Assembly: GCA_030645735.1 (NCBI GenBank)
Contig: JAUSNP010000003.1
Location: 27,608-91,607 of the forward strand
Length of the DNA: 64,000 bases
Direction: 5' to 3'
Origin: Candidatus Moraniibacteriota bacterium
Lineage (GTDB): Bacteria > Patescibacteriota > Minisyncoccia > Moranbacterales > UBA2206
The notes beneath the pieces were generated by a model that did no database searches, was not told the origin of the DNA, and worked only from the letters and a program-made list of their open reading frames with translations. Positions within the stretch are counted from its first letter, which is position 1, and each line of letters begins with the position of its first letter. Of this stretch, positions 5,514 through 62,334 are shown piece after piece. The position numbers were made by a program, and so were the translations under genes.

Positions 5514-6218
5514 CTAATTTAACACTTTTTTGGCATACATATCCACGTCTTGCACCCATTTGTCAGCGGCCGCTTGTCCGCCAGTCACCGAACAGTCAGA
5601 GCCACACTTCCAAACAACCATATCCTTGGCTGATTGCGCATCATTTCTTTCAATGATTTGGTCTATTCTAGTAGCCACGGCATTCACTGCTTCTTTGGGC
5701 GTGTCAAAACAAGTGTGTCCGCCACTGCCCATACGATCTCGTTTCGCTCGGAAGCCCCAATAGTTATAACAATCTTCACCATTTAACACCGGCTTTCTTT
5801 CTCCCCAAGCGCTTTCCTTTTTGGCGATACCGATGATATAAGCCGCTGTCTTTCTGTCCTTTGAAGAAATAAAAGGAATCATTTCTTCAATTGGATGACC
5901 TTTCACCAAAGCCTGCAAATCTTTTCTCAGAATTTCTTTTTTAATTTCTTGCGGATTTTTTTGCTCAACAATCTTCGCTTGGCACAAAATATTATTAGAA
6001 TAATATTGTTTTACCAAAACTACATAGCCAGCAAATATAATTAGACCCACCAAAACTACAATTCGCACTTGGACTTGATTGAGTTTGCCAGGCACAAGGC
6101 TTTGTCTGAAATCCTCAACTACCTGCTTGGCATTTCCAGAAAAATCGCTAAAATAAGCGCTTATTTGAAGTTTCGCCTTTTTGGACAGATTATTCAATTT
6201 TGTTTGTATTTTGTTCAT
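5514..6218 (-). CDS. Membrane-anchored hypothetical protein (N-in, single TM, Cys-containing extracytoplasmic domain)
   Basis: TM segment VRIVVLVGLIIFAGYVVLV. An AAGGA SD precedes the internal ATG (MNKIQTK). No family recognised. Confidence 0.5.
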   Translation of the reverse strand: MNKIQTKLNNLSKKAKLQISAYFSDFSGNAKQVVEDFRQSLVPGKLNQVQVRIVVLVGLIIFAGYVVLVKQYYSNNILCQAKIVEQKNPQEIKKEILRKDLQALVKGHPIEEMIPFISSKDRKTAAYIIGIAKKESAWGERKPVLNGEDCYNYWGFRAKRDRMGSGGHTCFDTPKEAVNAVATRIDQIIERNDAQSAKDMVVWKCGSDCSVTGGQAAADKWVQDVDMYAKKVLN

Positions 6219-6360
6219 TTTTTCCTTTAATTTTGTGGAAAAGTGGCTAGAAAAAAGCAAAAAACGGGTTCACCCGCTTTTTCAAATCTCTAGACCTAAT
6301 ATCCCACTACTATTCTATTATACACCACTTTTCGACAAAAAGCAAGCATTTTTGAATCTG

Positions 6361-7176
6361 CTACTTGAAATAATAAACTAGTAACACAATCATTCCGAGC
6401 ATCAAGCGATACCAGAAAAAAATTCCGTAGCCGAATTTTTCCAAAAATTTTAATAAATATTTGATAGCTAGATAACCAAAAAATGCTGAGGATAAAATTG
6501 CAATTATGATTGTAGAATTAATTCCTCCCTTGATCAGATCGGGCAATTTCAAAATAGCTGCACCAGCGATGATTGGTGTGGATAATAGAAAAGAAAATCT
6601 AGCCGCATTGATTTTGTTTAGTCCACAGAAAAGTCCAGCCGTGATAGTTGTGCCAGAACGAGAAAAGCCAGGAATAATCGCCAAAGCTTGTGAAAGACCA
6701 ATAATAATCGCATCTTTCCAAGTGATGCCAGTCACATCCTTTTGACCTTTAGATTTTTTGTCAGCCCAATATAAGACTGCGCCAGCTACGATCAGGGTGA
6801 CAGCGATTAGTGGCAATGAGCGAAAGATTGTTTCGGCTTTTTTCTCAAACAACAATCCAAAAATCACCGCTGGAACAGTGGCTACAATCAAAAAATATAA
6901 TGTCTCTTTTTTGAAACTACTGCCTCCCTCTTTTTTGAAACCCGCCCAGGCGGAAGATAAGATTTCCAACCAATCTTTCCAAAAGAAAGCCACCACTGCA
7001 ATCAAAGTTCCCAGATGCAAAGCCACATCGAAGGACAAGCCTGGGTCTTCCCAGCCCGTGAAAGCTGGCAACAAAATCAGATGCGCGGTGGAAGAAATCG
7101 GCAAAAACTCGCCGATGCCCTGCACTAGGCCAAAAACTACGGGCTGTATAAAATGTAACATAAAATTGAAAAACAT
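6361..7176 (-). CDS. uppP: Undecaprenyl-diphosphatase (BacA/UppP)
   Basis: GxGEFLPISSTAHLIL and GFSRSGTTITAGL motifs. Polytopic membrane protein of 271 aa. Confidence 0.85.
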   Translation of the reverse strand: MFFNFMLHFIQPVVFGLVQGIGEFLPISSTAHLILLPAFTGWEDPGLSFDVALHLGTLIAVVAFFWKDWLEILSSAWAGFKKEGGSSFKKETLYFLIVATVPAVIFGLLFEKKAETIFRSLPLIAVTLIVAGAVLYWADKKSKGQKDVTGITWKDAIIIGLSQALAIIPGFSRSGTTITAGLFCGLNKINAARFSFLLSTPIIAGAAILKLPDLIKGGINSTIIIAILSSAFFGYLAIKYLLKFLEKFGYGIFFWYRLMLGMIVLLVYYFK

Positions 7177-7732: not shown

Positions 7733-8170
7733 TCAATTTGGATGTAAAATGATTCCCCATCCAAAAGCAGTGACTACGAAGCTCACTGCGAACCAAATCT
7801 CCATAAAAGGCAACAGGGGAAATGCAGGTGTTCCATTGGGATTATGCAAAACCAATGTTTTAATTTCTATCAGAGCATCTCTCCGCTCCAACTGAGATAC
7901 TGACACCGGATTTTTTTCAATTTTTTCTATTATACTTCTGGAGTACCTCCTTACTTCATTAATCTGTTCATACAGGACACCCTTCTGGTCGCTTTCCTCC
8001 AGACAAACAAGTGCCAAACCAAGCACCTCGTTGACTTCTTCGATGGTCGTGGCATTCTCCACGCGATTCAAATGCCCACTAAACTCTTCGAATGAAATCC
8101 CATAAGGGATCACTGCTGAGCTCATGATTAACGATATTGTTGCGATTATTGCTACAATGTACTTTTTCAT
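7733..8170 (-). CDS. Hypothetical exported protein (N-terminal signal/TM, C-terminal TM)
   Basis: MKKYIVAIIATISLIMSSAV signal-like N-terminus and a C-terminal hydrophobic stretch WFAVSFVVTAFGWGIIL. Confidence 0.5.
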   Translation of the reverse strand: MKKYIVAIIATISLIMSSAVIPYGISFEEFSGHLNRVENATTIEEVNEVLGLALVCLEESDQKGVLYEQINEVRRYSRSIIEKIEKNPVSVSQLERRDALIEIKTLVLHNPNGTPAFPLLPFMEIWFAVSFVVTAFGWGIILHPN

Positions 8171-9355: not shown

Positions 9356-9513
9356 AAGAAGAATAATTTAATAATCTTACAATATTCTATCACGAAAAGT
9401 TCTGGCAGCATATTAGAGCATACATAAAATAGGCTCTTTTAAGCCTTTTTATTATGTTGCTCCACGAGTTGAAAATACTCAGCAAGGACCGTCCTCGATT
9501 AGACACTCATTTC

Positions 9514-9543
9514 CCCAAAATAAAAAAGTGCAAGGCTCCGCGA
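9514..9543. repeat. Left copy of a 30-bp direct repeat (cccaaaataaaaaagtgcaaggctccgcga). It duplicates the 3' end of tRNA-Asn plus 20 bp of flank.
   Basis: Exact 30/30 match to 10586..10615, with 2-3 more similar bases upstream. Confidence 0.8.
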
Positions 9544-9742
9544 GTTAGAAATAATGCGAACCTATCGGTAAATAATTATCAACAACTTTTATACCAAATT
9601 AGACAATACTCAATCTTACAGTTGAAATCTCGCGTCCTTGCCATTTATGCATAAACCTATTACCATTTATACAAGCAAAGAAAAGAGTTGAGTATAACAT
9701 CTAATTCTTTAGTCATTGCACAAACAACCAAGGGAGGCACCA

Positions 9743-10465
9743 ATGGACTCAAAAGGAACTATTTGGGCAGCACTGGACACGGAGAAGAGGAAGGCATTGG
9801 AAATCGCCAAAGCCATCGCTTCAAACCCAGCAATTTTCGGATTCAAGCTCAATCGTCTGATTGACCAGGAGGTTTTTCGCAAAGACGGAGAAGTGGCTTT
9901 GTTTGAGGAATTGGCAAAGCTTGGTCTTCCGCTTTGGGTTGACCTAAAGCTTCATGACGTTCCCAGAACCGTTGTCGAAAGGCTTATGCCGTACATTCAG
10001 TCGGGGTACGTCCAGTTCGTTACAGTTATGGCCAAGGGTGAAGTCGATATGATGTCCGATGCCGTCAACGCAATGGGAGCCAATGGAAACATTATCGCCG
10101 TCACCGAGCTAACATCGTTGTCCGAGGAGCAGATTCACCTGGGAAGCGGACACCCGTCGAAAGCTTCAGTAATCAACCTCGCTCGCCTTTCCGTACTGGC
10201 CGGAGTCCGCCACATGGTCTGCTCATCCCAAGAGCTTGGGGCACTTAAGGAGCGGAAGGAACTGAGAGTTCTTCAAAAATTTGTACCCGGCATAACACCC
10301 GACTGGAAAGGTAAAAATCAACCGGATCAGAAACGTGTCGGCAGTCCCGCATTCGCATTAAGCGGAGGTGCAAGCAAGGTTGTCATCGGCGGAGCCATTG
10401 TCAATGATGATGATCCCCTGGGTGCAGTCGAAAGAACAGCCGAGGAAATCGAGGCGATCAGCTGA
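9743..10465 (+). CDS. pyrF: Orotidine-5'-phosphate decarboxylase
   Basis: LWVDLKLHDVPRTV (the DxKxxDIPxT catalytic motif) and IIAVTELTSLSEEQ, PGITPDW, VVIGGAIV blocks align with PyrF. GC is about 50%, clearly above the neighbours. A strong AGGGAGG SD precedes the ATG at 9743; the track ORF starts at an upstream TTG at 9716. Confidence 0.8.
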   Translation: MDSKGTIWAALDTEKRKALEIAKAIASNPAIFGFKLNRLIDQEVFRKDGEVALFEELAKLGLPLWVDLKLHDVPRTVVERLMPYIQSGYVQFVTVMAKGEVDMMSDAVNAMGANGNIIAVTELTSLSEEQIHLGSGHPSKASVINLARLSVLAGVRHMVCSSQELGALKERKELRVLQKFVPGITPDWKGKNQPDQKRVGSPAFALSGGASKVVIGGAIVNDDDPLGAVERTAEEIEAIS

Positions 10466-10585
10466 ACCACACCATTTTCAATCACAACAGAAAGCCGAAA
10501 GTTCGCAGTGCGAACCGTAGGCTTTTTTATTTTCTAAAAATATAAATTGCCTAGCAAGGACAATTCTCAACTTAGTGCTATTTTT

Positions 10586-10615
10586 CCCAAAATAAAAAAG
10601 TGCAAGGCTCCGCGA
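10586..10615. repeat. Right copy of the 30-bp direct repeat; overlaps the 3' end of tRNA-Asn
   Basis: Identical to 9514..9543. Confidence 0.8.
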
Positions 10616-10679
10616 CCAGGACTCGAACCTGGAACCAATTGATTAACAGTCAACTGCTCTACCATTGAGCTATCGCGGA
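10606..10679 (-). tRNA. tRNA-Asn (anticodon GTT)
   Basis: Reverse complement reads TCCGCGATAGCTCAATGGTAGAGCAGTTGACTGTTAATCAATTGGTTCCAGGTTCGAGTCCTGGTCGCGGAGCC. 7-bp acceptor stem, D-loop AGCTCAATGGTAGAGC, anticodon loop CTGTTAA, T-arm GGTTCGAGTCC. Confidence 0.85.
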
Positions 10680-10772
10680 ACTTTGCACTTTTCTAGTGAT
10701 ACAAAGGTTGAATTTTTAAAGCCTAGTCATTATACCAAACCCAGATAAAAAATCAAGTTTTGGCCTCAAATC

Positions 10773-12248
10773 CTAATAATCCTTGAGTTTCTTGATCCCA
10801 TCATGCTCTCTGATCTTTTCCAAGGCTTTGGCCTCAATCTGACGGATACGTTCGCGGGTGACGCCAAATTCTTGACCCACCTCTTCTAAGGTGTGAACTA
10901 CACCGTCTTCCAAACCAAAACGGATTTTCAAGATTTTTTGTTCACGCGGAGTCAGAGAATTCAAAACTTCGGTCACATGATCTCGCAAAAGTTTGCGGGA
11001 AGCTACATGATGTGGCATGACGGTTTCGGTGTCTTCGATGAAATCTCCCAATACACTGTCGTCATCACTGTCGCCCACTGAAGTTTCCAGAGAAACTGTT
11101 TCTTGGGAAATTTTCATAATGTGGCGAATCTTATCTACTTCAATGCCCATTTCCACGGCCACTTCTTCCGGCAATGGTTCACGTCCCAAGTCTTGAACTA
11201 GTCTTCGAGTTATCTGAGTATACTTGTTGATTGTTTCCACCATATGCACTGGAATACGAATGGTTCGAGATTGATCAGCCAACGCTCGCGTGATGGCTTG
11301 GCGAATCCACCAAGTTGCATAAGTTGAGAATTTATAACCTTTAGTATAATCAAATTTTTCTACGGCGCGGAAAAGTCCAATATTGCCTTCTTGAATCAAA
11401 TCCAACAATGACAAATTGTGTGAGCGACCCACATATTTCTTGGCGATACTCACTACCAAGCGCAAATTGGCTTCAGTCAATTTTTGCTTGGCAATTGGAT
11501 CACCTTTTTCAATTCTTTTGGCCAATGAAATTTCTTCTTCTGTTTTCAGCAAATCTACGCGTCCAATTTCTCGCAAATACATTTGGACAAGATCAGAAGA
11601 TGCTTCTTCCGGCACATCAATTTCTTTTTTCTTTCTTTTCTTGCTAACTTTTTCTTCTTCAAAATCAGACACCACTTTGTCAGTTTCCATCTTGATCATC
11701 TCATCTGACCCCAAGACGCGCACGCCCATATCCTCCAGCTTTTCATAAAGATTACCTAGGTCTTCAATGCTTTTTTCGGCATCTGGAAAAGCATGCAAAA
11801 TTTCATCTTCGGTGATGAAACCTCTTTGCTTGCCACGATAGAGCAATTCTTCAGCGATGCTTTTTTTCTTTTCTTCCTTGGCTTTGTAGGGCACTACTTG
11901 TTTGCCTTGGCTGATTTTTTTCTCAGCACGACTTTGACCAACCTTGGCAGGCTTGGTAGCCTTTTTTGGTTCCACAACTTTGATAGCTTTGATAGCTTGT
12001 TTAGCTTTGACTGGCGCTGTCACTTTTTTCACAACTTTTTTTTCTTTTTTGGCCACTTTTTTCACCACCTTGGCAGTTTTTTTCGCCACAACTTTGCTAG
12101 CCTTTTTTGCAGGCTTAGTGGTTTTTTTAATAATCTTTTTGATAATTTTTTTGGTTACTTTTTTAACGGCTTTTTTGATAGTCTTTTTCACGAGAGCTTT
12201 TTTCTTTTTATTATTTAGAGGCTTTTTGCTGATTTTCTTTTTGGCCAT
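10773..12248 (-). CDS. rpoD: Primary sigma-70 factor RpoD with a ~120-aa Lys/Ala/Val-rich N-terminal extension
   Basis: Regions 1.2 to 4 are present ([40 protein letters not shown]; [24 protein letters not shown]). The N-terminus is KKxxKK repeats ([29 protein letters not shown]...). Confidence 0.9.
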
Positions 12249-12377: not shown

Positions 12378-14252
12378 CTAGTTTATTGCTTTGTTTAGCA
12401 CGGCTTGTTCTGCATTGATGTTAGTGTATTCTTCACCTAAGAATTTCACGGCTAGCGCGTCAGATTTTTTTCTGGCAGCATCCAAGTCTTTTGAGATTTT
12501 ATCTAAACGACTTTTGTTAATTTCATATTTAATTTTTTGCAATCTATTTTTTGCTTCTGCCAAAGGTTTTTCGAGAACAATTTCTTCCAGACTATTGTCC
12601 AGACCGATTTTATATCGAGTTTCGAAATATATTTTTTCAGCCGCAGTTCTGTCGGATTGGGATTCAAGATTTTTAGTTAGCTCATCGAAACTAAAATGAA
12701 ACCCTCCGCCGTTTTGAATCATAACACTTAGAAGGCTATCTTTTGGAACAAAGGATAAATCCTCATTGTCCAACATTTCCTTCCAAACGTCGCTATAGAC
12801 TAGCATTAATCCAATTAGGTCTTTTGTGAGAGTTTCAATTTTGCCACTAGGGGCGAAGATCTTGCTTTCTTGCGGCAAGTCTTGTGAAGTTCTAACTACT
12901 CTATCTCTAAGACTAGCCTTTTTCAGCATATCCGTCAATATGTTCTCCTGAATATCAATTTCAGCCGCCAACTTTTTCAACCAATGGCTCTTCTCAATTT
13001 CATTGGCCAAAAAACCAATCATCTCCAAAAGTTCTTCGGAAATTATTTTTTTATCTTCAACTTTTTCCTTGTTATATTTCGAAAGCACTTTGTCAAAAAA
13101 ATATTCCATCGCCGGTCTCGCCTTCTCCACCGACTCACGCAAAATTTCTGGATTGTTCTTGGCCAAGTCAGCTGCGTCTTTGCCAGATGGCAATTGCACC
13201 ACGCGCACATTCACTTCTTTTTCAAAACACAGCTTGATGCTTTTTTTCGTGGCCAATTCACCGGCATTGTCCATATCAAAACACATATCAATTTTGTCAG
13301 CATATCTCTTGATGATGTTCAAATGTTCTTGCGTCAAAGCCGTGCCCGAAACGGCCACCGTGTTTTTGAGTCCGGCTTGATGCGCCGCAATTACATCCAT
13401 GTTGCCTTCCACTAAAAGTGCTGATTTTTGCAAACGAATTTCGTTCTTAGCGCGACTGATTCCATAGAGAATTTTGCTCTTGTGATAGACTTCGGTTTCG
13501 GGTGTGTTCACATATTTGGCTTGCGATTCATCTCCGCCTGGTGCCACACGGGCGCTATAGCCCACAACTTTGTCATTGGAATCAGCAATGGGAAACATTA
13601 TTCTATCTCTGAAACGGTCGTAGAAATTTGAAGCTACGCCAAGGTTCAACCTTGACGATGCCTGTGCGTTCTCCAAAGGTTGAACCTTTGAGTTGTTAGA
13701 ATTGTCTCTTTTCTCAACCAACAATCCTGTCTTTGCGATTTCTTCAACTGTAAAACCTTTCTTCATTAAAAATGACATTGTATTACTCCAACCATTGGGC
13801 GCATAACCCAAACGAAAATCTTTGATTGATTCATCATTGATGCCACGATCTTTCAAATATTCCAAAATTTTCTTGCCAGGCGCAGTTTGCAACAGATGGG
13901 CTTGATAGAATTTTGTGGCCATTTCCAAGATTTCCAAGGTGCGATTTTTTTCGGCCGCTTGCTTGGGATCAGTTTTTTTGAGTTCGACACCGGCCTTGTC
14001 TGCTAACAGAGTCAAAGCCCCTTTGAAATCCAAACCTTCAATATCCATCACAAAGCCAAAAATGTCGCCACCCTTCTGACAACCAAAACAATGCCAAATC
14101 TGTTTGTCTTCGCTGACCATAAAAGACGGGCTTTTTTCGTTGTGAAACGGACAATTGGCGCGCCAATTAGTGCCGGCTTTTTCCAAGCGGATATACCCTC
14201 CCAGAACATCCACGATGTTCAGACGCGATTTTATATCGTCAATATCAGACAT
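12378..14252 (-). CDS. dnaG: DNA primase
   Basis: Zinc-binding CPFHNEKSPSFMVSEDKQIWHCFGCQKGGD, TOPRIM region EGNMDVIAAHQAG, 624 aa. It sits upstream of rpoD in the classic dnaG-rpoD arrangement. Confidence 0.9.
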   Translation of the reverse strand: MSDIDDIKSRLNIVDVLGGYIRLEKAGTNWRANCPFHNEKSPSFMVSEDKQIWHCFGCQKGGDIFGFVMDIEGLDFKGALTLLADKAGVELKKTDPKQAAEKNRTLEILEMATKFYQAHLLQTAPGKKILEYLKDRGINDESIKDFRLGYAPNGWSNTMSFLMKKGFTVEEIAKTGLLVEKRDNSNNSKVQPLENAQASSRLNLGVASNFYDRFRDRIMFPIADSNDKVVGYSARVAPGGDESQAKYVNTPETEVYHKSKILYGISRAKNEIRLQKSALLVEGNMDVIAAHQAGLKNTVAVSGTALTQEHLNIIKRYADKIDMCFDMDNAGELATKKSIKLCFEKEVNVRVVQLPSGKDAADLAKNNPEILRESVEKARPAMEYFFDKVLSKYNKEKVEDKKIISEELLEMIGFLANEIEKSHWLKKLAAEIDIQENILTDMLKKASLRDRVVRTSQDLPQESKIFAPSGKIETLTKDLIGLMLVYSDVWKEMLDNEDLSFVPKDSLLSVMIQNGGGFHFSFDELTKNLESQSDRTAAEKIYFETRYKIGLDNSLEEIVLEKPLAEAKNRLQKIKYEINKSRLDKISKDLDAARKKSDALAVKFLGEEYTNINAEQAVLNKAIN

Positions 14253-14411: not shown

Positions 14412-15506
14412 TTATTTGTTGCGAATGATTTCAACGACCATGTCGCCAAAACCACTCGTGGAAAGAATCTTCTCCGCGGGATAGCCACCAGCGAGTTCAT
14501 TGGTGGTATAACCCCGTTCGAAGACAGCAAAGAGAGTATCCCAAACCTCTTTGCCTTCCACTGGCAGATTGAGACATTTTTCAAACATTAGGGCAACACT
14601 GCCAATCATCGAATAGGGATTGGCGATGTTTCGGCCAGCAATGTCCGGAGCTGAACCGTGAGCCGGCTCCACATAGCCTTTATTAGGCCCAATGCAGGCC
14701 GAAGGCATCAAGCCCAACGAACCAATCACTCCGCCAGCCTGATCAGTGAGAATATCGCCCATCATGTTTTCCAGCAGACAGACGCCGTTGAACATGCTCG
14801 GATTGATTACCAACTGATAGGCAGCGTTATCAACCAGCACCGATTGATACGGCACTTCGGGATAATCCTTGGCCACTTCCTCAACCACTGCGTTCCAGAA
14901 GCGCGAGGTGGCCAAGACATTGGCCTTGTGAATGTTGATCATCTTACATTTCCGTTTTCGCGCCTCATCGAAAGCGACCAGCGCCACCCGACGTACCTGT
15001 TCTTCGGTGTAACAACAGTCATCCACTGCATACTGCATGTGGGTAGTTGGTCCCTCAACTTTTCCCCCAAAATAAATGCCGCCGACTAATTCCCGAATCA
15101 TCAGAATATCGATGCCGTCACCGAGATTCTCCGGCTTGAGCGGTGAAAAATGAGACAACGCCTTTGGCAATCTGACGGGCCGGTAATTGGCAAAAGTGTC
15201 ATAGCGCTGGCGCAGGGGTAGGATGGCACCGACTTCAGGCCGGTACTGCTGAGGAATCTCGTTCATCCGCTCAACCGCCAAACCGACCGGCCCCTTCATA
15301 ATTACATCGGCCCGATCGCAAACCACTTTGGTCTTCTCCGGGAAGGGCGAGCCCTCACTGAAGTAGGCACCGGCTCCGAAAGGCGCGAATTCCAAAGTGA
15401 ACTGATGGCCGTATTTTTCCTCAACTGCCTTCAGTACCTTTAAGGCCTCGCGCATGATTTCCGGACCAATCCCGTCTCCTTCCAGAACTGCTATCATACT
15501 CTTCAC
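14412..15506 (-). CDS. Isopropylmalate/isocitrate dehydrogenase-family enzyme (LeuB-like)
   Basis: IAVLEGDGIGPEIM N-terminus and HGSAPDIAGRNIANP C-terminal motif. GC is about 50% against about 38% for neighbours. An AAAGGAGG SD precedes a GTG start inside the longer track ORF (14412..15566). Confidence 0.75.
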   Translation of the reverse strand: MKSMIAVLEGDGIGPEIMREALKVLKAVEEKYGHQFTLEFAPFGAGAYFSEGSPFPEKTKVVCDRADVIMKGPVGLAVERMNEIPQQYRPEVGAILPLRQRYDTFANYRPVRLPKALSHFSPLKPENLGDGIDILMIRELVGGIYFGGKVEGPTTHMQYAVDDCCYTEEQVRRVALVAFDEARKRKCKMINIHKANVLATSRFWNAVVEEVAKDYPEVPYQSVLVDNAAYQLVINPSMFNGVCLLENMMGDILTDQAGGVIGSLGLMPSACIGPNKGYVEPAHGSAPDIAGRNIANPYSMIGSVALMFEKCLNLPVEGKEVWDTLFAVFERGYTTNELAGGYPAEKILSTSGFGDMVVEIIRNK

Positions 15507-15723
15507 TTGTACACCTCCTTTTGTTAAAGTATCGACTAAACCACAGTTTAAATAACAACTAAGCAATTTGCTTAGTTAAATAATGTATCAAAACGACGCA
15601 TCAGTGTCAATTTATTTTACAATTTAAAAAACACGTTGTTTGCGTGTTTTCCTTGATATAGATACTTAATATTCTCTTGCTTATATTATGCTACCCATAT
15701 ACTAACAGCGTATGGGCAGTAAA

Positions 15724-16599
15724 TCAATTGCCTATCTTTCTAACTTTTCCACCATGCAACATTTTTGCATTTTTATTTGTAATAACTTTCTTACCTGTTT
15801 TAGTTTCAATGTCTTTACGTGCATTGCCCGCTATGCCCCCACCTTCCCGCGCTACAATCTTGTTTTCATCTAAATTCTTTGGTTCACGAGTTTCAGAAAT
15901 TTCAGTGGTGGCTGTTTCGGCCAACATATTCAAAACCAATTCCAGATTAGTCATATTGTCACGCAAATTTTCTTTCTTGAGATTTTTATAGCTTTTGTAT
16001 TCTTTAGTTGTCATGCCCGCCCATGCCTGTGTGATTTCATTGGTCAAAATTGCAAACTCCAAGCCCTCTTTGACGCCTCGTTTTTCCCACTCATCTGTCA
16101 AAGATTTGCGAATTTCAATGCTCTTCAATCGTTGATTCACCCATTCTGGAGAATAGCCTTTTTGCAAATATGTTTTGAGAGCGCGATTGATTGCCAGTTC
16201 AGGATCAGCCATTTCCTCCAATCTTTCATAACCCACGCGTGCCAACCATAATTTGAATGGCTCTGCATTGGGTGAAGGAATAGATTGGATGAGACGCAAT
16301 AATGTTTCTGTATCAGCAACATCAGTGAGGCGCATTTTTCCATCTTGAGCAATCATTTTCAAACCGTTACATTTTGTAACGGTTTCATTTGAACCTTCAT
16401 CAATTAAACGCTTTTTAAGAACGCGCCAATATACTTGAGGATTATCACTATTTGTCAAAATTGAAATTACATCAACCACTGAAAAATACCACAATTCCTT
16501 TTCGCCATCCCACTGTCGACGGATTTCATTGCCTTCAAAAATTGCAACGACTTTTGTTTTTATTTTTTTCATACTATTTTTTTGAAAAATTAGACTCAC
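15724..16599 (-). CDS. DinD-like protein with an N-terminal Bro-N-type domain (paralogue 1 of 3)
   Basis: N-terminus FEGNEIRRQWDGEKELWYFSVVDVISIL is Bro-N-like. The C-terminus shares the ENLRDNM..ELV..ML and KKGGxIAGxAR blocks with the 20937..21779 and 39980..40828 copies, and from memory with E. coli DinD. An alternative start is the ATG at 16572. Confidence 0.65.
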   Translation of the reverse strand: MSLIFQKNSMKKIKTKVVAIFEGNEIRRQWDGEKELWYFSVVDVISILTNSDNPQVYWRVLKKRLIDEGSNETVTKCNGLKMIAQDGKMRLTDVADTETLLRLIQSIPSPNAEPFKLWLARVGYERLEEMADPELAINRALKTYLQKGYSPEWVNQRLKSIEIRKSLTDEWEKRGVKEGLEFAILTNEITQAWAGMTTKEYKSYKNLKKENLRDNMTNLELVLNMLAETATTEISETREPKNLDENKIVAREGGGIAGNARKDIETKTGKKVITNKNAKMLHGGKVRKIGN

Positions 16600-16677: not shown

Positions 16678-16765
16678 TGGCGGAAGAGGAGAGATTCGAA
16701 CTCTCGGTGAGTTTCCCCACACACGCTTTCCAAGCGTGCGCACTAGGCCACTATGCGACTCTTCC
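16678..16765 (-). tRNA. tRNA-Ser (anticodon GGA)
   Basis: Reverse complement reads GGAAGAGTCGCATAGTGGCCTAGTGCGCACGCTTGGAAAGCGTG...GAGAGTTCGAATCTCTCCTCTTCCGCCA. It has a long variable arm, anticodon loop TTGGAAA and an encoded CCA. Confidence 0.85.
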
Positions 16766-20936: not shown

Positions 20937-21779
20937 TTATTTTCCATTTTTCAACAATTTTTTATTCTGCGGAACTTGCAAATAATTTTCTTTTTTAATA
21001 ACCATGCTACCAGATTCTAGTTCTAGATTTTTTCGAGCGTCGCCAGCAATTTTTCCACCCTTTTGGGCGGCCACTTTGTTTTCAGAAAATCCGACGGCAT
21101 TTTTGCTAACAGCGATTCTAGTCGTGGAAGCTTCACCTAACATAGAAAAGATCAACTCCAAGTCATCCATATGATCACGCAAGTTTTCTCTCTTCAATCC
21201 CTTGTGTTCTTTGTATTCGCTGGGTGTCATATCAAAAGTTGCCCTGGATATTTCGGCTGTCAAAATTGCAAACTCCCGATCTTCTTTGATGTCTCGATTT
21301 TTCCATTCATCCGTCAATTCTTCACGAATGGCAATACCTCGCATTCTTTTTTCAATCCATGCTTCTGAATATCCTTTTAGCTTATACAATTCCCTAGTCC
21401 GCTTAGTTGCCAACTCAGGATCTTCAATTTCCTTTATTCTGTCATAGCCAACTTTAGCCAACCACCTTTTCAGTGGTTCAGCCTTTGGCGAAGGAATCGA
21501 TTGAACTATACGAAGCATGGTTTCAGTGTTGGCACAATCAGTTTCTCTAAACTTGCCGTCAGTAGCTTCCATTTTCAACTGTCCGATTTTATCGGACACT
21601 TCAATATAACCCTCACTCACTAACTTTGTTTTAAGATCACTCCAATATTTCCTTGCTCTGTCCGTGCCCGTTAAAATTCCTACTACGTCAATAACCGAAA
21701 ACCACCATTCATCCTGATATACAGCTTTTCTAATTTCCATGCCTTGAAAAATAGCTAATCCTTTATTTGTTTTTTCCAT
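20937..21779 (-). CDS. DinD-like protein with Bro-N-type N-terminus (paralogue 2 of 3)
   Basis: FQGMEIRKAVYQDEWWFSVIDVVGIL and ...ENLRDHMDDLELIFSMLGE...KGGKIAGDARK. It shares a conserved 5' region (tttttatttttattg..cttaYAGTG) and the palindromic site with paralogue 3. Confidence 0.65.
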   Translation of the reverse strand: MEKTNKGLAIFQGMEIRKAVYQDEWWFSVIDVVGILTGTDRARKYWSDLKTKLVSEGYIEVSDKIGQLKMEATDGKFRETDCANTETMLRIVQSIPSPKAEPLKRWLAKVGYDRIKEIEDPELATKRTRELYKLKGYSEAWIEKRMRGIAIREELTDEWKNRDIKEDREFAILTAEISRATFDMTPSEYKEHKGLKRENLRDHMDDLELIFSMLGEASTTRIAVSKNAVGFSENKVAAQKGGKIAGDARKNLELESGSMVIKKENYLQVPQNKKLLKNGK

Positions 21780-39979: not shown

Positions 39980-40828
39980 CTAATTTTTCAATTTTTTTAC
40001 AGTTTTATTTTTTAGCAAAAAATTCCTGCCAGTCACCACACTTTTGCCAGTTTTTTCTTCCAAGGCTAGTCTCGCGTCTTTGGCGATTTTGCCACCTTTT
40101 TTCGCTGGGATTTTATTTTCTTCCAAACCTCTCGCCTCATCTGTTTCCGCAATTCTTCTGGTAGAAATTTCAGCCAGTGCCGTGAAAATCAATTCTTCTT
40201 CACTCATGTGATCACGCAAATTTTGTGTTTTCAGGCCTTTCAAATTTTTGTGATCTTTGACTGATAAATCTGTCCATTCTTCATGAATGATGTTGGTCAG
40301 GATCGCAAACTCTTCGCCTCTTTTCACTTCATTGCCACTCCAATAATCCGTCAGCTTATTTCTCACTTCCTGCCCCATCATTCTTTGTTGAATCCATGCC
40401 GCACTGCGTCCTTGTTTTTGCCAATATTCTCTGGAACGATTGAGGGCTATTTCCGGATCAGTCATTTCCTGCATTCTTTCATAACCAACTTTCGCTAACC
40501 ACAATTTTACTGGTTCGGCTTTTGGACTTGGTACCGATTGAATCAATCGCAATAAAGTTTCTACATTAGCTGCATCAGTCTCATAATATTTACCATCAGT
40601 AGCCATAAATTTCAGTTGGTGACAATTTGTCACCGACTCATTTCCCTCTTTCCCCAATCTCTCCTTAAGTTTATTCCAGTATTTTCTAGCTGTTTTATAA
40701 TCATTCTGTTGAATTAAGGCTTGCATAATATCAACCACCGAAAAATACCAAACCTCAGTTTTCTCGTCATAATGCCGACGAATCTTAAAGTTTTCAAAAA
40801 TAGCCAGTGAGTTTTGATTTTTTTCCAT
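39980..40828 (-). CDS. DinD-like protein with Bro-N-type N-terminus (paralogue 3 of 3)
   Basis: FENFKIRRHYDEKTEVWYFSVVDIMQAL and ...QNLRDHMSEEELIFTALAE...KKGGKIAKDAR. Confidence 0.65.
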   Translation of the reverse strand: MEKNQNSLAIFENFKIRRHYDEKTEVWYFSVVDIMQALIQQNDYKTARKYWNKLKERLGKEGNESVTNCHQLKFMATDGKYYETDAANVETLLRLIQSVPSPKAEPVKLWLAKVGYERMQEMTDPEIALNRSREYWQKQGRSAAWIQQRMMGQEVRNKLTDYWSGNEVKRGEEFAILTNIIHEEWTDLSVKDHKNLKGLKTQNLRDHMSEEELIFTALAEISTRRIAETDEARGLEENKIPAKKGGKIAKDARLALEEKTGKSVVTGRNFLLKNKTVKKLKN

Positions 40829-57318: not shown

Positions 57319-57975
57319 ATGGAATTAAACATTAGCCCAATAATTCATTTTTTTACTAACGAGGGCGTGCCAATCGAAACAATTATTTTACTTTTGATGT
57401 TACCAATCATCGCCACTTTCATCGCTTTCTTGCGACAAGTGGTTGGAATCAAGGCTTTCGGCATCTACACACCGCTTATTATAACCTTCGCTTTTTTGGC
57501 CACCAATGGCTTGCGCTATGGCGTAGCAATTTTTTTGGCGGTTATTTTTATCGGCATGCTTATGCGTTTTGTGATGAAGCCTTTTCGTTTGCTCTATCTG
57601 CCACGCGTAGCTATTATGCTCACCATTGTTTCCCTAACAATCTTAGTGATGCTAGTTTTAGGTGGCAATCAAAGACGCACGGGACTGGCATCAGTTTCTA
57701 TTTTTCCAATCTTGATTATGATTACACTCGTAGAAAAATTTGTAGCTGTGCAAATCGAGAAGGGCAACAAGACAGCTCTGATTTTGGCTTTTGAAACTTT
57801 GATCATTTCTATCTTCGGTTTCTACATCGCGAGTTGGAAACCACTTATTGAAATCCTGATTGGTTACCCATGGCTTATTCTATTGACTATTCCAATGAAT
57901 ATTGTAATCGGCAAATGGACAGGACTCCGCATCAGTGAATATTTCCGCTTCAGACACATAATCAAACAACTCTAA
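57319..57975 (+). CDS. Seven-TM membrane protein (resembles the 7TM module of 7TM-transglutaminase partners of ATP-grasp systems but lacks the soluble domain)
   Basis: Seven hydrophobic helices in 218 aa. First gene of the ATP-grasp operon. Confidence 0.55.
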   Translation: MELNISPIIHFFTNEGVPIETIILLLMLPIIATFIAFLRQVVGIKAFGIYTPLIITFAFLATNGLRYGVAIFLAVIFIGMLMRFVMKPFRLLYLPRVAIMLTIVSLTILVMLVLGGNQRRTGLASVSIFPILIMITLVEKFVAVQIEKGNKTALILAFETLIISIFGFYIASWKPLIEILIGYPWLILLTIPMNIVIGKWTGLRISEYFRFRHIIKQL

Positions 57976-58080
57976 TCGTGTAACGCAAAACGTGGATCGC
58001 AAAACGCACATCTCCATGACGCAAAGCAAAAAACTGCGTTATGCGATATGCGTTCTACGATTTGCGAATATTCTATGTTT
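57975..58080. repeat. Repeat block related to 43441..43545 (inverted copy aacgcaaaacgtggatcgcaaaacgc plus direct tgcgttatgcgatat), at the boundary between the 7TM gene and the ATP-grasp fusion gene
   Basis: gcgttttgcgatccacgttttgcgtt (the reverse complement here) matches gcgttttgcgttccacgttttgcgtt in tsaE. tgcgttatgcgatat is shared in direct orientation. Confidence 0.7.
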
Positions 58081-59478
58081 GAATTTTTCAAAAACAGTCG
58101 CAAGCTTTTAGGCATGAACTCAAGAAATCTTGAGTTCATTCGGCCGTTCAATCGCGCCAAGGCCAAACGATTGGCGGACAACAAAATGCGCAGTAAGCGT
58201 GTGCTGAAAAAGAATGGCATTTCTGTTTCCAAACTGATTGCCACCATCAAAACAATTGAGGACTTGGAAAATTTTGATTGGCAAAAGTTGCCCAATAGCT
58301 TTGCCTTGAAACCTAATCGCGGTTTTGGTGGTGAAGGAATTGTTGTCGTCTATGGCAAGAAAAAGGGCCGCGATGATGCCTGGGTCAAAGCTGATCGCTC
58401 CCTCATCACCATTGAAGATTTAGTTAGTCACATTCGCAACATTTTGGACGGTTCTTTTTCACTTTCCAACACGCCTGACTTTGCTTTTTTTGAAGAACGC
58501 TTACAACTTTTGAAGTTATTCAAGCCCTATTCATATAAAGGTATTCCTGATATTCGCGTGATTGTTTTCAACAAAATTCCTGTGATGGCCATGTTGCGCT
58601 TGCCTACTAAAGAATCCGGTGGCAAGGCCAACTTGCATCAAGGCGCTATCGGGGTGGGTATCGACTTAGCTACTGGCGTAACAACCACCGCTATTCAAAA
58701 CAATCGCCTGATTGAAAAAATTCCTGGTACGCAACTTTCTACCAGTGGTTTGCGTATTCCCTATTGGAAGGATATTTTATTTTTAGCCACCAAGGCGCAA
58801 GAAATTTCTGGGCTAGGTTATCTGGGGGCTGACATCGCCATCGACAAAGAAAACGGTCCAACCATTTTGGAACTCAATGCCCGCCCAGGACTCGCCATTC
58901 AAGTGGCTAATTTGGCAGGTCTTGCGGAAAGACTCAAAAGAGTTTCTGGGATCAAGATAAAAACCGTCGAAAAAGGCGTACGCGTGGGCATGGATCTTTT
59001 TGGTGGAGAAATTGAAGAAGAACTAGAGGAAATTTCTGGTCGGAAAGTCATTGGCACAGTGGAAAAAGTGAAAATTACTGGTAAAAATGGCAAGGAAGTT
59101 GAGGTTGAAGCTAGAATAGATACTGGCGCCGGCATATCCGCCATCAGCAAAGAATTGGCCATCGAACTAGGCTTTGACGAAGCAGTTCGTTATTGGGAGG
59201 AATTTAATCTGGACAAGGTTCTCTCTGAAGAAGAAATACAAAAACTTAGCGCCAACAAAACTTGGAAGGAATTAGAAAAACATCCTGATATTGTGGGCGT
59301 CGCAAAAACATATTCCGCTCATGGCGCAACTTATCGAATAGAAATCAAAGTTTCATTATTAATAGATAATCTGGCTGTCCTATCAAAACTGTCCATTTCC
59401 AACAGAAGTGGTCTTGCCTATCCAATTCTTATCGGCCGCAGAGATCTGAATAAGTTTTTAATAGATGTAAAAAAATGA
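58048..59478 (+). CDS. ATP-grasp ligase (alpha-L-glutamate-ligase-like / ATPgrasp_ST type) fused to a C-terminal retropepsin-like aspartyl-protease (DUF785 / 'ATP-dependent zinc protease'-type) domain
   Basis: N-terminal GMNSRNLEFIRPFNRAKAKRLADNKMRSKRVLKKNGISVSKL, then an ATP-grasp core (GGEGIVVVYGKK..., ...LGYLGADIAIDKENGPTILELNARPGL). C-terminal EVEARIDTGAGISAISKELAIELGF carries the D-T-G-A signature. The true start is probably downstream (58078 or 58114), because the annotated start lies inside a repeat element. Confidence 0.6.
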   Translation: MRSTICEYSMFEFFKNSRKLLGMNSRNLEFIRPFNRAKAKRLADNKMRSKRVLKKNGISVSKLIATIKTIEDLENFDWQKLPNSFALKPNRGFGGEGIVVVYGKKKGRDDAWVKADRSLITIEDLVSHIRNILDGSFSLSNTPDFAFFEERLQLLKLFKPYSYKGIPDIRVIVFNKIPVMAMLRLPTKESGGKANLHQGAIGVGIDLATGVTTTAIQNNRLIEKIPGTQLSTSGLRIPYWKDILFLATKAQEISGLGYLGADIAIDKENGPTILELNARPGLAIQVANLAGLAERLKRVSGIKIKTVEKGVRVGMDLFGGEIEEELEEISGRKVIGTVEKVKITGKNGKEVEVEARIDTGAGISAISKELAIELGFDEAVRYWEEFNLDKVLSEEEIQKLSANKTWKELEKHPDIVGVAKTYSAHGATYRIEIKVSLLIDNLAVLSKLSISNRSGLAYPILIGRRDLNKFLIDVKK

Positions 59479-60452
59479 TAAAAAATCCGCCACTAATTAA
59501 AAAGATTGTCGAAGAAATGGGTGGGACTTTTGAAGAGGTCGTTCCCGAACGCGGTTGCTATTATATTCATGTGAAAGGCAAGGTTTTTATGATTACCCGA
59601 AAATTTAGAATTGCTAAAAATTTCATTAGTGTTGCTGGAGCAACTGCTTACAAAGATTTAACCTATACTTTGCTCAAGCGGCAGTCCCTTCCTACGCCTA
59701 CTACAGTTTTTTTCTTTAGAAAAAATTTCAAACCAGCAGACATTAAAAACAAATTGTTGGATATGCAATTTCCAATAATTATTAAGGATTCCGCTGGTTC
59801 AAATAGCCAGGGTATTTTTCCATATATAAAAAATTTAAAGGAAGCTCAATCTATTATAAACAAAGAGATTTTGAATTTCAGATCACTCATCGCCCAAGAA
59901 ATGATTTTTGGCAAAGAATATCGCATTTTAATTTTGGACGACAAAGTTATCGGGGCATTAGAAATGATCCCGCCACGAGTTTTTGGTGATGGAAAATCTA
60001 CAATTGCGCAACTAATCGCAGAAAAGCAAAAACATACTCATCGCAAGACGCCTATCGATCCGGCTCTAAAAATAATCCTGCAAGAACAAGGCTTTTCCCT
60101 TGATTCTGTTCTAGCTGCTAATGAGATTGTCTCAATCAAAAAAAGTTCTTCTCTGGCAGAGGGCGGGGAAACTCGCGATGTCACCGAACTAGTTAATAAA
60201 AAAATTGTTGCTATTTGCGCGCAAGCGTCTGACGCTATTGGCGATTATCTAGCTGGTATTGATATAATCTGCGAAGACATTTCAAAAAATCCAACCACGC
60301 AAACATTCGGCATTTTAGAAATAAACGGCAAGCCTGATATTTATATTCACTACAACCCAACTTTTGGAAAATCTAGAAATGTCATAAAGGACATCATAAA
60401 TTTTATTCTGAAATTGAGCACCACACAAAAAAGTGCCCTATCAAAAAAATAA
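59475..60452 (+). CDS. ATP-grasp ligase, cyanophycin-synthetase-N-terminal-like
   Basis: EYRILILDDKVIGALEMIPPRVFGDGKSTIAQLIAEKQ resembles the CphA/Mur-associated ATP-grasp core. C-terminal GIDIICEDI...GILEINGKPDI. The start overlaps the upstream stop (ATGA). Confidence 0.55.
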   Translation: MIKNPPLIKKIVEEMGGTFEEVVPERGCYYIHVKGKVFMITRKFRIAKNFISVAGATAYKDLTYTLLKRQSLPTPTTVFFFRKNFKPADIKNKLLDMQFPIIIKDSAGSNSQGIFPYIKNLKEAQSIINKEILNFRSLIAQEMIFGKEYRILILDDKVIGALEMIPPRVFGDGKSTIAQLIAEKQKHTHRKTPIDPALKIILQEQGFSLDSVLAANEIVSIKKSSSLAEGGETRDVTELVNKKIVAICAQASDAIGDYLAGIDIICEDISKNPTTQTFGILEINGKPDIYIHYNPTFGKSRNVIKDIINFILKLSTTQKSALSKK

Positions 60453-60455
60453 CCT

Positions 60456-61379
60456 ATGAAAAAGATTCTGCTAATTGGCATTGGGGAAGAAAATAGCCCC
60501 AAACAATATCTTCCGCCTGCCTTTAAAAAAAATGCAATGCCTTTTATCTATGCAAAGTGGTCAGACTTATCTTTTCAAGGAAAAGATGTTTTCGTTGGAC
60601 AAATCAAGCTTGACTTCAAAAATATAAAGACTGTTATTTTTGATATTTTTCGCTTTCCTATTATAAAAAAGGTGAGCAAGCAAGCCTTTAACTATAATTT
60701 GGAGAACGAGTTTAATATTTTGCTTAATATTCTAAAAGAAAAAGGAATTTACACGCCTAACCATACATTCTTTTTGCAATACCCTTTTTATAATAAATTC
60801 TCACAGATGCACATATTTGCTAGCAAAAAAATCCCCACTATTTCAACCTTGCACCTGTGCGATAACAAAAAAAACAAAGTCCTTAGTTTGCTCAAAAAAC
60901 AATCCATACCCTTTCCCTTAGTCGCCAAAGAAAGTTATGGAGGTGGCGGAAATAATGTTTGGAAAATATCCAATAAAAAAGCGTTGGAAAGTTTTATTGA
61001 AAATCGCAGGAATATCAATACTGTATTCCAGCCTTATATAAAAAATGATGCTGATTATAGAGCTATTGTGATAAATGGGGAATGTATTGGGCTAATGAAA
61101 AGAAGCGCCCAGAAGGGTCAGTGGAAAAACAATTTTTCGCTCGGTGGAAAAGTACAAAAATATATCGATCCCAAGATGAGTCGTTTTGCCGTCAATGTTT
61201 GCAAGAAAATGGGGCTTGAAATGGTGGGGTTAGATATTCTCGCCACCAAAAATGGGTTTGTGATAATTGAGGCTAATTTATTTTTTGGCCTTGATGGATT
61301 TCAATCAGTCCATCCAGAAATAAATATAGCCGAAAAAATAATAAAATTAATTTCAACTAAAAACATATGCAAAAAGTGA
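60456..61379 (+). CDS. RimK-like ATP-grasp ligase
   Basis: FPLVAKESYGGGGNNVWKI, DYRAIVINGECIGLMKRSAQKGQWKNNFSLGGK, MVGLDILATKNGFVIIEANLFFGLDG. Confidence 0.6.
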   Translation: MKKILLIGIGEENSPKQYLPPAFKKNAMPFIYAKWSDLSFQGKDVFVGQIKLDFKNIKTVIFDIFRFPIIKKVSKQAFNYNLENEFNILLNILKEKGIYTPNHTFFLQYPFYNKFSQMHIFASKKIPTISTLHLCDNKKNKVLSLLKKQSIPFPLVAKESYGGGGNNVWKISNKKALESFIENRRNINTVFQPYIKNDADYRAIVINGECIGLMKRSAQKGQWKNNFSLGGKVQKYIDPKMSRFAVNVCKKMGLEMVGLDILATKNGFVIIEANLFFGLDGFQSVHPEINIAEKIIKLISTKNICKK

Positions 61380-62323
61380 TGATTCTCTTCGGCAAAAGCG
61401 ACTGGCGCAAGGCCAAGCCGTTTGCTAATAAGGACTACCAGTATTCTTATGAATACTTCTATTCTTTGTGTAAAAAAAACAACATTCAGATGTATCGAGC
61501 CTCCTACCAATGGTACGACCACACAAACAATCTTTTCAAATATGCTTGGCTCTATGAAGGAGAGGGTGGCAAGTGGAAGAAAGTTAAAAATATAAAACCC
61601 GCCTTAGTTTATGACAAAACCAAGGCTCGCATGGAAGTCTACCACATCAAGGAATTGATAGGCCAAAATTATCCATTCATAAATGATCAGATTTTTACAA
61701 GATTAATTGATGATAAATTCACTACTAGTTTAATTTTTGAAAAATGGAGTAAAAAAAATTGGCTGATACAAAATCATGCTGACTTGAAAAAAACTCTCCC
61801 AAAAATAACAACTAGTAAAGTCGTGCTAAAGCCACTGATGGAAAGCGGCGGCAAAGGCGTTCAGGTTTTGAACAAAAAAGACGCTGCGAGCAAGGCTCAG
61901 ATTGAGGGGGTGAGTTTGATTCAGGATTTCATCGATTCATCCAACGGCGTTCCGGGCGTAAGCACGGCCATGCATGATTTGCGCGTTGTTATGATCAATG
62001 AAAAAATTATCTATGCCTACATCAGAGAGCCTCAGGCGGGCAGTTACCTGGCTAATTTGGCTCAAGGCGGATCCCTGAAAATTGTACCTAAAGAAAAATT
62101 GCCAAAAGCCCTTTTGCCTATTATAAATTTCGCTAACAACGCTCTCGCCTCGTTTAACCCTAGAATTTTTTCCATCGATTTTATGTTTGATGAAAATAAA
62201 AAACCTTGGGTAGTAGAATTGAATTCTATGCCAGGCCTGTTTTTTACTCCAGAAGAAAAGCCCTATATGCTAGAAATGTATGCTGAGCTACTCCAGGTTT
62301 TTAAAACTGCTTTAAAAAAATAA
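61367..62323 (+). CDS. RimK-like ATP-grasp ligase
   Basis: VVLKPLMESGGKGVQVL, HDLRVVMINEKIIYAYIREPQAGSYLANLAQGGS, IFSIDFMFDENKKPWVVELNSMPGLFF. Overlaps the upstream gene by 13 nt. Confidence 0.55.
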   Translation: MQKVMILFGKSDWRKAKPFANKDYQYSYEYFYSLCKKNNIQMYRASYQWYDHTNNLFKYAWLYEGEGGKWKKVKNIKPALVYDKTKARMEVYHIKELIGQNYPFINDQIFTRLIDDKFTTSLIFEKWSKKNWLIQNHADLKKTLPKITTSKVVLKPLMESGGKGVQVLNKKDAASKAQIEGVSLIQDFIDSSNGVPGVSTAMHDLRVVMINEKIIYAYIREPQAGSYLANLAQGGSLKIVPKEKLPKALLPIINFANNALASFNPRIFSIDFMFDENKKPWVVELNSMPGLFFTPEEKPYMLEMYAELLQVFKTALKK

Positions 62324-62334
62324 TTTGATCCTTT

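Follow-up and report, generated by a model that had tools for sequence, protein, structure and literature searches.

Probable Insertion of an Islet with a pyrF-Like Gene at the tRNA-Asn(GTT) 3′ End in a Candidatus Moraniibacteriota Bacterium

Introduction

How does a lone metabolic gene come to lie between two copies of the end of a tRNA gene in a bacterium of a reduced lineage? The question is raised by a 64,000-nt stretch of the genome of a Candidatus Moraniibacteriota bacterium (GenBank assembly GCA_030645735.1, contig JAUSNP010000003.1, positions 27,608 to 91,607 of the forward strand; hereafter the window, to which all coordinates refer unless another locus is named), in which a gene of the orotidine 5′-monophosphate decarboxylase (OMPdecase) family, here called pyrF-like, sits in a 1,072-bp insert at the 3′ end of tRNA-Asn(GTT). 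Members of the candidate phyla radiation (CPR)/Patescibacteria have tiny genomes, obtain nucleotides from their hosts and by most accounts carry few mobile elements. A preliminary description of the locus, made from its letters alone, had proposed a horizontally acquired single-gene element that lacks an integrase and was perhaps delivered in trans. Comparison with other genomes supports this proposal: the gene is absent from this place in relatives, one of which shows an empty site, the unit that carries it recurs elsewhere, and the window encodes no recombinase. We consider it probable that the insert is a small recombinase-less islet, resembling a cis-mobilizable element (CIME), which entered at the tRNA-Asn 3′ end by a single crossover and was mobilized in trans.

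Results and Discussion

A Direct Repeat of the tRNA-Asn 3′ End Frames One Gene

The insert is framed by a direct repeat of 30 nt (CCCAAAATAAAAAAGTGCAAGGCTCCGCGA), already reported in the preliminary description, which occurs exactly twice in the window, at 9514–9543 and 10586–10615. No third copy appears there with up to three mismatches, which answers the concern that it might be a common intergenic motif, and 0.00 copies are expected in the shuffled window. The copy on the tRNA side had been described as the last 10 nt of the tRNA followed by 20 nt of flank, and the placement of the tRNA gene by ARAGORN and Rfam agrees with this; the gene is intact, lies on the minus strand (10606–10679) and is preceded on the same strand by rpoD (10773–12248) and dnaG (12378–14252). 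The insertion affects the 3′ part of the tRNA gene and leaves it intact, the insert starting within or just after the last 10 nt, and it can be delimited as 9544–10615 or, equivalently, as 9514–10585. The 1042 nt between the repeat copies hold one real open reading frame (ORF; 9743–10465, plus strand), so that the earlier claim of a single gene stands, while its name, pyrF, holds at the level of the family only.

Away from the tRNA gene the similarity of the two copies extends to 72 nt with 76% identity (9472–9543 and 10544–10615), and all 17 mismatches fall outside the 30-nt block (chance P = 1.9e-5). Because every mismatch avoids the core, this is an identity block of the crossover type and not an evenly decayed duplication. 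The distribution bears directly on one alternative to an insertion, namely that the gene is ancestral at this place, the repeat having formed when the tRNA-Asn 3′ end with its trailer was locally duplicated in tandem, and that the relatives have lost the gene; even decay of the two copies would be expected in that case, yet none of the 17 differences lies in the core.

The features of the locus are as follows, with the strand where one applies (loci of other genomes carry L numbers):

9431–9468, minus strand: older remnant, composed of an acceptor-end-like motif (CTCGTGGAGCA, 9458–9468) and a bidirectional terminator hairpin (9431–9446)
9472–9513: native trailer of tRNA-Asn, moved about 1.07 kb off the tRNA gene, recognized by its match to the tRNA-Asn trailer of L013
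9514–9543: distal copy of the 30-nt repeat, attR-like core, an exact match to the proximal copy
about 9534–9618, minus strand: putative degenerate tRNA-Asn-like end module (psi-tRNA), weak in the window, from alignment, shuffles and profile
9638–9666, plus strand: promoter-like TTGCCA-17-TACCAT, from a consensus scan; the DNA homology to L008, L092 and L001 begins at 9638/9644
9683–9709, plus strand: conserved leader hairpin, function unassigned (RNAalifold, five cassette copies)
9731–9737, plus strand: Shine-Dalgarno sequence AGGGAGG, 5 nt ahead of the ATG, with the second-strongest anti-Shine-Dalgarno duplex among 43 ORFs
9743–10465, plus strand: cargo gene, pyrF-like, OMPdecase family, 240 aa (PF00215, 93.6 bits)
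about 10489–10527, plus strand: nested terminator hairpin, then a T run (RNAfold, dG −17.2 kcal/mol)
10544–10585: trailer-like arm beside the intact tRNA, presumably islet-borne (about 60% identical to the distal flank without gaps, 29/40 with gaps)
10586–10615: proximal copy of the 30-nt repeat, attL-like core, tRNA positions 65–74 and 20 nt of trailer
10606–10679, minus strand: attachment target tRNA-Asn(GTT) (ARAGORN; Rfam tRNA, 74.1 bits), the order rpoD–tRNA-Asn being found also in 24 related loci

The leader and trailer of this tRNA-Asn are complementary to each other (10593–10615 and 10673–10695, 23 nt, 87%), which adds about 7 pairs to the acceptor stem, with a T run coming next. The tRNA-Asn as a whole may act as a terminator of the dnaG-rpoD transcript, or the pairing of leader and trailer may be a processing signal.

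Empty and Occupied Sites in Related Genomes

For comparison we took 80 loci encoding relatives of the window DnaG, one genome per species, 78 of which carry a relative of rpoD. An OMPdecase gene near rpoD is present in none of these 78 dnaG-rpoD loci from Moranbacteria and Parcubacteria, so that the situation which the preliminary description had named as speaking against acquisition, pyrF at this position in all relatives, does not obtain. An intact tRNA-Asn follows rpoD in L012, L013 and 22 others. The empty site that had been suggested as a check is seen in L013 (DnaG 73%, RpoD 92% identity), where the sequence immediately after tRNA-Asn is a trailer identical to the distal flank of the window (9472–9513) at 32 of 37 positions and to the proximal flank (10544–10585) at only 25 of 39. 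This is the arrangement predicted for an empty site, a single crossover of the Campbell type placing the native trailer at the far end and the incoming arm beside the tRNA. It is also at odds with an ancestral gene and a local duplication, since the tRNA-side copy is the one that deviates from the trailers of relatives, and loss of the gene would be needed in all 78 loci.

The closest relative, L012 (DnaG 78%, RpoD 92%), was considered as an empty site and ruled out, as a different islet of 3.2 kb with two Fic-domain genes occupies its tRNA-Asn. That islet is bounded by a 46-nt repeat (95.7%) comprising the tRNA from position 65 onward and 36 nt of trailer, and it thus shares its repeat start, tRNA position 65, with the window. 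The 20-nt trailer part of the 30-nt core is lineage-specific and present in both L012 and L013. Additional copies of the tRNA-Asn 3′ end recur in other relatives, with a 45-nt repeat 3.1 kb downstream in L065, two more copies in L042 and short ones in L071, L072 and L082, which indicates that the region downstream of tRNA-Asn is a recurrent site of exchange in the clade. Indeed, what lies there differs among the window, L012, L013, L042 and L065. The genes to the left of the islet (EamA, a 145-aa ORF, DUF4234 and UppP) have no counterparts downstream of rpoD in the related loci, and synteny can therefore be used on one side only.

Two further observations concern the tRNA-Asn genes of relatives. 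An insert of 200–245 nt, placed after position 34, interrupts the tRNA-Asn(GTT) that lies downstream of rpoD in L025 (3025–3271), L016, L029 and L040. The insert of L025 belongs to the group I introns (RF00028, 74.5 bits, exceeding the gathering score); the tRNA-Asn of the window is intronless. Inside duplicated tRNA-Asn copies we also found a short palindrome, CCGCCAGCTGGCGG or CCTGCCTGCCGGCAGGCAGG (L042 13517–13537 and 16672–16690, L065 about 13390–13405, L071 about 10150–10170), which resembles repetitive extragenic palindromic (REP) sequences.

The Cassette Recurs as a Unit in Unrelated Neighborhoods

The gene neighborhoods of homologues of the cargo gene are wholly different from one genome to another. 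DNA homology to the window cassette includes noncoding sequence in L008/L009, L092, L001–L003/L093 and L011, where it spans from about 9598–9644 to about 10532–10545 and thus takes in promoter, leader, gene and terminator together. Gene, leader and terminator form a conserved unit of about 0.9–1.0 kb in unrelated surroundings. Within this unit an AGGAGG/GGGAGG sequence is kept across the cassette copies, as are the TTG...TACCAT columns of the promoter-like site, and the terminator hairpin accompanies the gene in L008, L092, L001 and L011. The nested terminator hairpin and T run had been noticed in the preliminary description, as had the contrast between the strong AGGGAGG and the poor signals of native genes; we find a Shine-Dalgarno core (5-mer) in just 2 of the 43 window ORFs, and the host genome therefore appears to be largely independent of such sequences. 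The other gene with a strong signal (AAGGAGG) is the 145-aa ORF of unassigned function at 7733–8170, which may also be foreign. The leader, about 75 nt long, contains an 11-bp stem kept in five copies, with one compensatory and several one-sided changes; five sequences are too few for a judgment, and the hairpin may be a regulatory element. A riboswitch or other known RNA was considered and dropped, Rfam at permissive E-values having matched the tRNA alone.

In several genomes the gene also lies between repeats. Units flanked by repeats were found in L011 (62–65 nt) and L008 (a unit of 1.58 kb), and in L096 the gene alone, with noncoding DNA unlike that of the window cassette, lies between repeats of about 80 nt. 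A right boundary at TGCTCC, first adopted for L008 and L011, was replaced, because a further repeat of 37–100 nt shows that the units are larger and stand in tandem.

These occurrences weigh on two of the alternatives. One is an artefact, a misjoin of two populations at the short repeat; the window does come from a metagenome-assembled genome and a single contig, its exact protein being found on no other assembled contig. A repeat of 30 nt is shorter than the k-mers or reads that usually cause such errors, however, and both junctions would need to be wrong; the order tRNA-Asn, repeat, cargo, psi-tRNA module, repeat is found independently in L012, and repeats also enclose pyrF cassettes in L011 and pyrF genes in L008 and L096, all of them from different studies, so that an artefact is hardly credible. 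As to an ancestral gene, homologues are widespread in Patescibacteria, and a distant subgroup has the gene stably placed after a tRNA-Met/tRNA-Asp cluster beside phosphoribosyltransferase (PRTase) genes, from which it follows that the pyrF-like family is not purely mobile. Yet the leader, Shine-Dalgarno sequence and terminator are common to copies in unrelated contexts, and together with the pattern of mismatches and the 78 losses this makes ancestry at this locus very improbable.

tRNA-Asn-Derived Modules at the Boundaries

The upstream end of the unit in L092, L008 and L011 carries, on the opposite strand, a degenerate 3′ part of tRNA-Asn that extends from the anticodon loop to the acceptor end (psi-tRNA). 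That of L092 reaches z = 12.5 against authentic tRNA-Asn when compared with shuffles, and over its final 23 nt it does not differ from the 3′ ends of tRNA-Asn in L087 and L044. The Rfam tRNA model gave no match to the modules of L092 and L009, and their derivation from tRNA-Asn therefore rests on alignment and shuffles. The same module ends the Fic islet of L012 (leave-one-out nhmmer E = 9e-11); it is about 78% identical to the L008 module by hand count on a mafft alignment and includes a distinctive 5-nt insertion (GTTCGAATCRATTTGARC/TCGCGGAGC). The corresponding end of the window islet is probably a psi-tRNA that has decayed much further than these, with z = 5.2 against tRNA-Asn when the core is included.

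In L008 and L065 units are flanked by boundary modules of a second type, AAGTTCTAAGTTyATyCA...GGGAGCA. The profile built for this type found copies on which it had not been trained downstream of tRNA-Asn, in tRNA orientation, in L069, L087, L016 and L042, as well as a second copy in L065.

Beyond the distal copy of the repeat in the window, the older remnant (9431–9468) resembles a junction in L011, GAGCTCGCGGAGCAAATCTC followed by a hairpin, and has weak similarity to L092 444–490. The number of CTCGTGGAGCA motifs is not significant, two matches being reached in 21 of 100 shuffles.

Recombinases Are Missing from the Window and Present in Relatives

We scanned 43 ORFs of the 64-kb window with Pfam, among them all distinct ORFs of 150 aa or more, and no recombinase or transposase was found. 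An integrase encoded by the element beside its attachment site is lacking as well, the sole ORF of the insert being the OMPdecase gene, and since no recombinase is present, movement of the islet would have to rely on an enzyme acting in trans. In related loci, 3 of the 44 ORFs downstream of tRNA-Asn encode large serine recombinases of 496–534 aa with Resolvase, Recombinase and Zn_ribbon_recom domains (L072 11643–13247, L073 11950–13524 and L081 12423–13913). All three are on the reverse strand and end 0–12 nt from the tRNA-Asn 3′ end or overlap it, and they are candidates for tRNA-Asn-specific integrases of the clade.

Other kinds of mobile element were considered and set aside. The cargo protein has no relative in IMG/VR, where the boundary-module pattern likewise found no exact match, and a phage origin was dropped on these grounds. 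An insertion sequence (IS), miniature inverted-repeat transposable element or transposon was rejected because there is just a trivial AT-rich inverted pair of 12 nt near the ends, the duplication measures 30–72 nt and no transposase is present; the defining features of an IS200-type element are missing too. In L013, an ORF for an IS200-like Y1 transposase (11587–12222) lies beside tRNA-Asn.

The Cargo Protein and Its Base Composition

The cargo matches PF00215 (see the feature list), and OMP decarboxylases account for all ten of its PDB matches (best E = 7.8e-20). The catalytic motif D67-x-K69-x-x-D72 (DxKxxD) and, upstream of it, K35 and D12 are invariant among 36 homologues. The protein nevertheless falls under all three NCBIfam PyrF cut-offs (NF001273, 126.4 < 193; TIGR01740, 81.6 < 92.3; NF010386, 67.3 < 208), as do all six tested homologues for NF001273 and NF010386 and five of the six for TIGR01740, which P0029 passes (105.3 > 92.3). 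When the cargo protein is aligned with 27hh_A and 3tfx_A, neither the PGIR nor the VGR motif keeps its arginine (PGIT for PGIR, VIGG for VVGR), and the consensus of the homologues reads PGITP and VIGSAIV. Cargo and homologues P0002–P0064 keep DxKxxD, have lost both arginines (PGIT, VIG[G/S]) and possess a conserved P-x-W-K insertion after PGIT. These arginines hold the phosphate of the substrate in the enzymes of Bacillus subtilis, yeast and Methanothermobacter thermautotrophicus. The phosphate site of the cargo protein may be altered, or its substrate different, and we use pyrF as a family-level name only.

A role in the conversion of orotate to uridine monophosphate (UMP) is plausible. At least 15 more distant homologue loci (51–74% identity) have a PRTase-like gene adjoining the pyrF-like gene, the PRTase-like gene of L004 having its best matches to pyrE models, under the cut-off; in the window, the Pfam scan of 43 ORFs found no PRTase or other gene of the pyrimidine pathway. 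Six of these distant loci have the pyrF-like gene downstream of a tRNA-Met/tRNA-Asp cluster. We also observed that the acceptor 3′ end of tRNA-Asp is repeated once or twice (13–21 nt) ahead of the pyrF-like gene in L101 (1220–1278), L102 (about 1935–1950) and L105 (1745–1765), in some cases just upstream of a TTGACA box.

Homologues at 50–88% identity are all from Patescibacteria, and the 240-aa product has a 100% match named “Candidatus Moranbacteria.” In L011 (Parcubacteria Athens0714_25, 5929–6591) the cassette gene is disrupted some 25 codons in, by a deletion or an in-frame stop, and its called product has 196 aa, which suggests that the cargo is decaying in that host.

The preliminary description had put the GC content of the gene at about 50% against about 38% for its neighbors. 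With 51.3% the coding sequence does have the highest value of 42 ORFs, but the background is less distant than that (window 40.0%, gene mean 40.8%), another gene reaches 50.8% (14412–15566) and GC at third codon positions lies about 2 standard deviations over the mean (z = 1.96). Homologues of the cargo gene exceed their flanks by about 3–17 GC points (typically 8–13) in every host examined, and composition alone is therefore weak evidence of transfer. After these comparisons with other genes and other hosts we no longer take GC as proof of foreignness; elevated GC and a strong Shine-Dalgarno sequence in a window poor in them would be foreign-looking signals, of which the GC part is modest.

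Other Features of the Window

Three paralogous proteins with a Bro-N domain (280–291 aa) are encoded at 15724–16599, 20937–21779 and 39980–40828, one of the genes lying directly downstream of tRNA-Ser(GGA) (16678–16765). The stretch 57319–63219 holds a gene for a 7TM_transglut membrane protein and, after it, an uninterrupted row of five RimK-like/ATP-grasp genes, of which one also has a fused Zn_protease domain.

How the Islet Might Have Been Acquired

The observations can be joined in the following model. In its circular form the islet would carry a three-part attachment site: a degenerate 3′ portion of tRNA-Asn, 30 nt that are the same as in the target, and an arm resembling a trailer. A single reciprocal crossover within those 30 nt would join this circle to the chromosome, yielding on one side an attL-like product, the intact tRNA followed by the trailer-like arm of the islet, and on the other an attR-like product, the psi-tRNA of the islet followed by the native trailer at the far end. 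What is delivered would be a self-contained expression unit with promoter, leader of about 75 nt, strong Shine-Dalgarno sequence, OMPdecase-family gene and terminator. In this model the islet would be one of a set of small islets that, in Moranbacteria and related members of the Patescibacteria, line up in tandem behind tRNA-Asn and are bounded by tRNA-Asn-derived modules, and the best candidate for the trans-acting enzyme would be a large serine recombinase such as those abutting tRNA-Asn in three related genomes.

Several points weigh against this model. A clear empty-site match comes from L013 alone, as L012 is occupied and the trailer of L025 is unrelated, and if relatives had lost the islet precisely, through recombination of its repeats, the result would look no different from gain. 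L010, which has the closest protein (88%), has just the coding region in common with the window at the DNA level, and the cassettes of L008, L011 and L092 have no intact tRNA beside them, so that the element can also lie away from a live tRNA-Asn. The psi-tRNA of the window is weak, with a leave-one-out E of 0.04–0.13 over 32 nt (9534–9565), and without the core its score against tRNA-Asn is reached by 26 of 1000 shuffles (p about 0.03). At the loci with serine recombinases the boundary modules were not detected within the DNA examined, and no cognate recombinase is tied to these att sequences. The GC excess, being common to all hosts examined, need not reflect recent transfer. Finally, homologous recombination by the host would produce the same topology.

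The last point deserves to be spelled out. A circularized fragment of a related Moranbacterium (tRNA-Asn, trailer, pyrF, psi-tRNA) might have been taken up, for example by competence, and joined to the chromosome by a single RecA crossover that the repeats would make reversible. The arm at 10544–10585 is a diverged tRNA-Asn trailer, as expected of a fragment from a related tRNA-Asn locus, 20 nt of the core are lineage-specific trailer shared with L012 and L013, the window has no recombinase, and repeats elsewhere vary in sequence and length (37–80 nt) as if homology set them. Yet two different islets, those of the window and of L012, share the start of their repeat at tRNA position 65, and boundary modules are kept beside the repeat across genomes and cargos, which points to a recognized site; moreover, with 30 nt of identity such a crossover would be marginal, close to the shortest length that RecA can use. 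We regard this route as rather unlikely, and prefer site-specific insertion of an islet mobilized in trans.

A more far-reaching version of the preferred model is conceivable, to be taken as a tentative suggestion only. Many small islets, with pyrF-like, Fic and other cargos, could constitute a cassette system anchored at tRNA-Asn, equipped with portable tRNA-Asn-derived modules, arrayed, and shuffled by a serine recombinase encoded elsewhere; the pyrF-like cargo, without its two phosphate-binding arginines, could also be an OMPdecase-family enzyme with a changed substrate. If true, this would amount to an integron-like platform for gene capture on a tRNA gene, in organisms thought to be poor in mobile elements. 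The likeness to integron cassettes lies in units of about 1 kb with a single gene and a bounding recombination site, in arrays, and in a recombinase encoded elsewhere. Integron cassettes proper were rejected, as the hairpin arms GTTCGCA/TGCGAAC are unlike GTTRRRY/RYYYAAC (judged by eye, with no attC model run), the unit has its own promoter-like site and its boundaries derive from tRNA-Asn; no IntI or attI was found in the window, nor a tyrosine recombinase among its Pfam-scanned ORFs.

Comparison with Known Systems

Classical tRNA islands and prophages have tyrosine integrases, examples being P4-like islands and the Yersinia high-pathogenicity island at asn tRNA genes. The islet is similar to these in its insertion at the 3′ end of a tRNA gene, the duplication of this end as attL/attR, its atypical composition and translation signals and its patchy presence, and differs in the absence of an integrase gene, in being one to two orders of magnitude smaller and in carrying a single gene for a housekeeping-type enzyme.

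The nearest documented counterparts are the ssrA islands of Dehalococcoides, which stand in tandem downstream of the transfer-messenger RNA (tmRNA) gene and are bounded by a 20-bp repeat of its 3′ end, with a conserved non-ssrA motif just upstream of each repeat and a large serine recombinase of about 540 aa on the reverse strand beside attL; 15 of these islands have no integration module and were proposed to be cis-mobilizable (McMurdie et al., 2011, PMC3146451). The parallels are the tRNA-Asn repeats, the psi-tRNA modules, the recombinase-less units and the serine recombinases of 496–534 aa at tRNA-Asn in three relatives. Here, in contrast, the target is tRNA-Asn rather than the tmRNA gene, the host belongs to the CPR/Patescibacteria, the unit is a single gene of about 1.07 kb, the repeat reaches 20–36 nt into the trailer, and no recombinase is linked to these boundary modules.

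CIMEs, in turn, have lost their integration and transfer genes while attL and attR persist, and a cognate element can mobilize them by tandem accretion (ICEberg 2.0, PMC6323972). The islet fits those of Streptococcus and other Firmicutes at the level of sequence, with two identical 30-nt cores at att-like sites and no recombinase or transfer gene. CIMEs are, however, defined against an identified parental integrative and conjugative or integrative and mobilizable element with the same att sites, and none is known for the islet; Patescibacteria are not known to carry conjugative elements of the kind that gives rise to CIMEs.

Implications

The class of mechanism is thus already known from islands anchored at tRNA and tmRNA genes, some of which lack an integrase, and the islet extends the principle and overturns nothing; in this lineage, tRNA-anchored islets are little described. 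The locus shows that single metabolic genes can be gained as ready-to-express units at a tRNA gene, and islet insertion would offer reduced symbionts a concrete and testable way of filling gaps in their metabolism. The att-like sequences and the candidate serine recombinases might, in addition, be developed into genetic tools, of which hardly any exist for this group.

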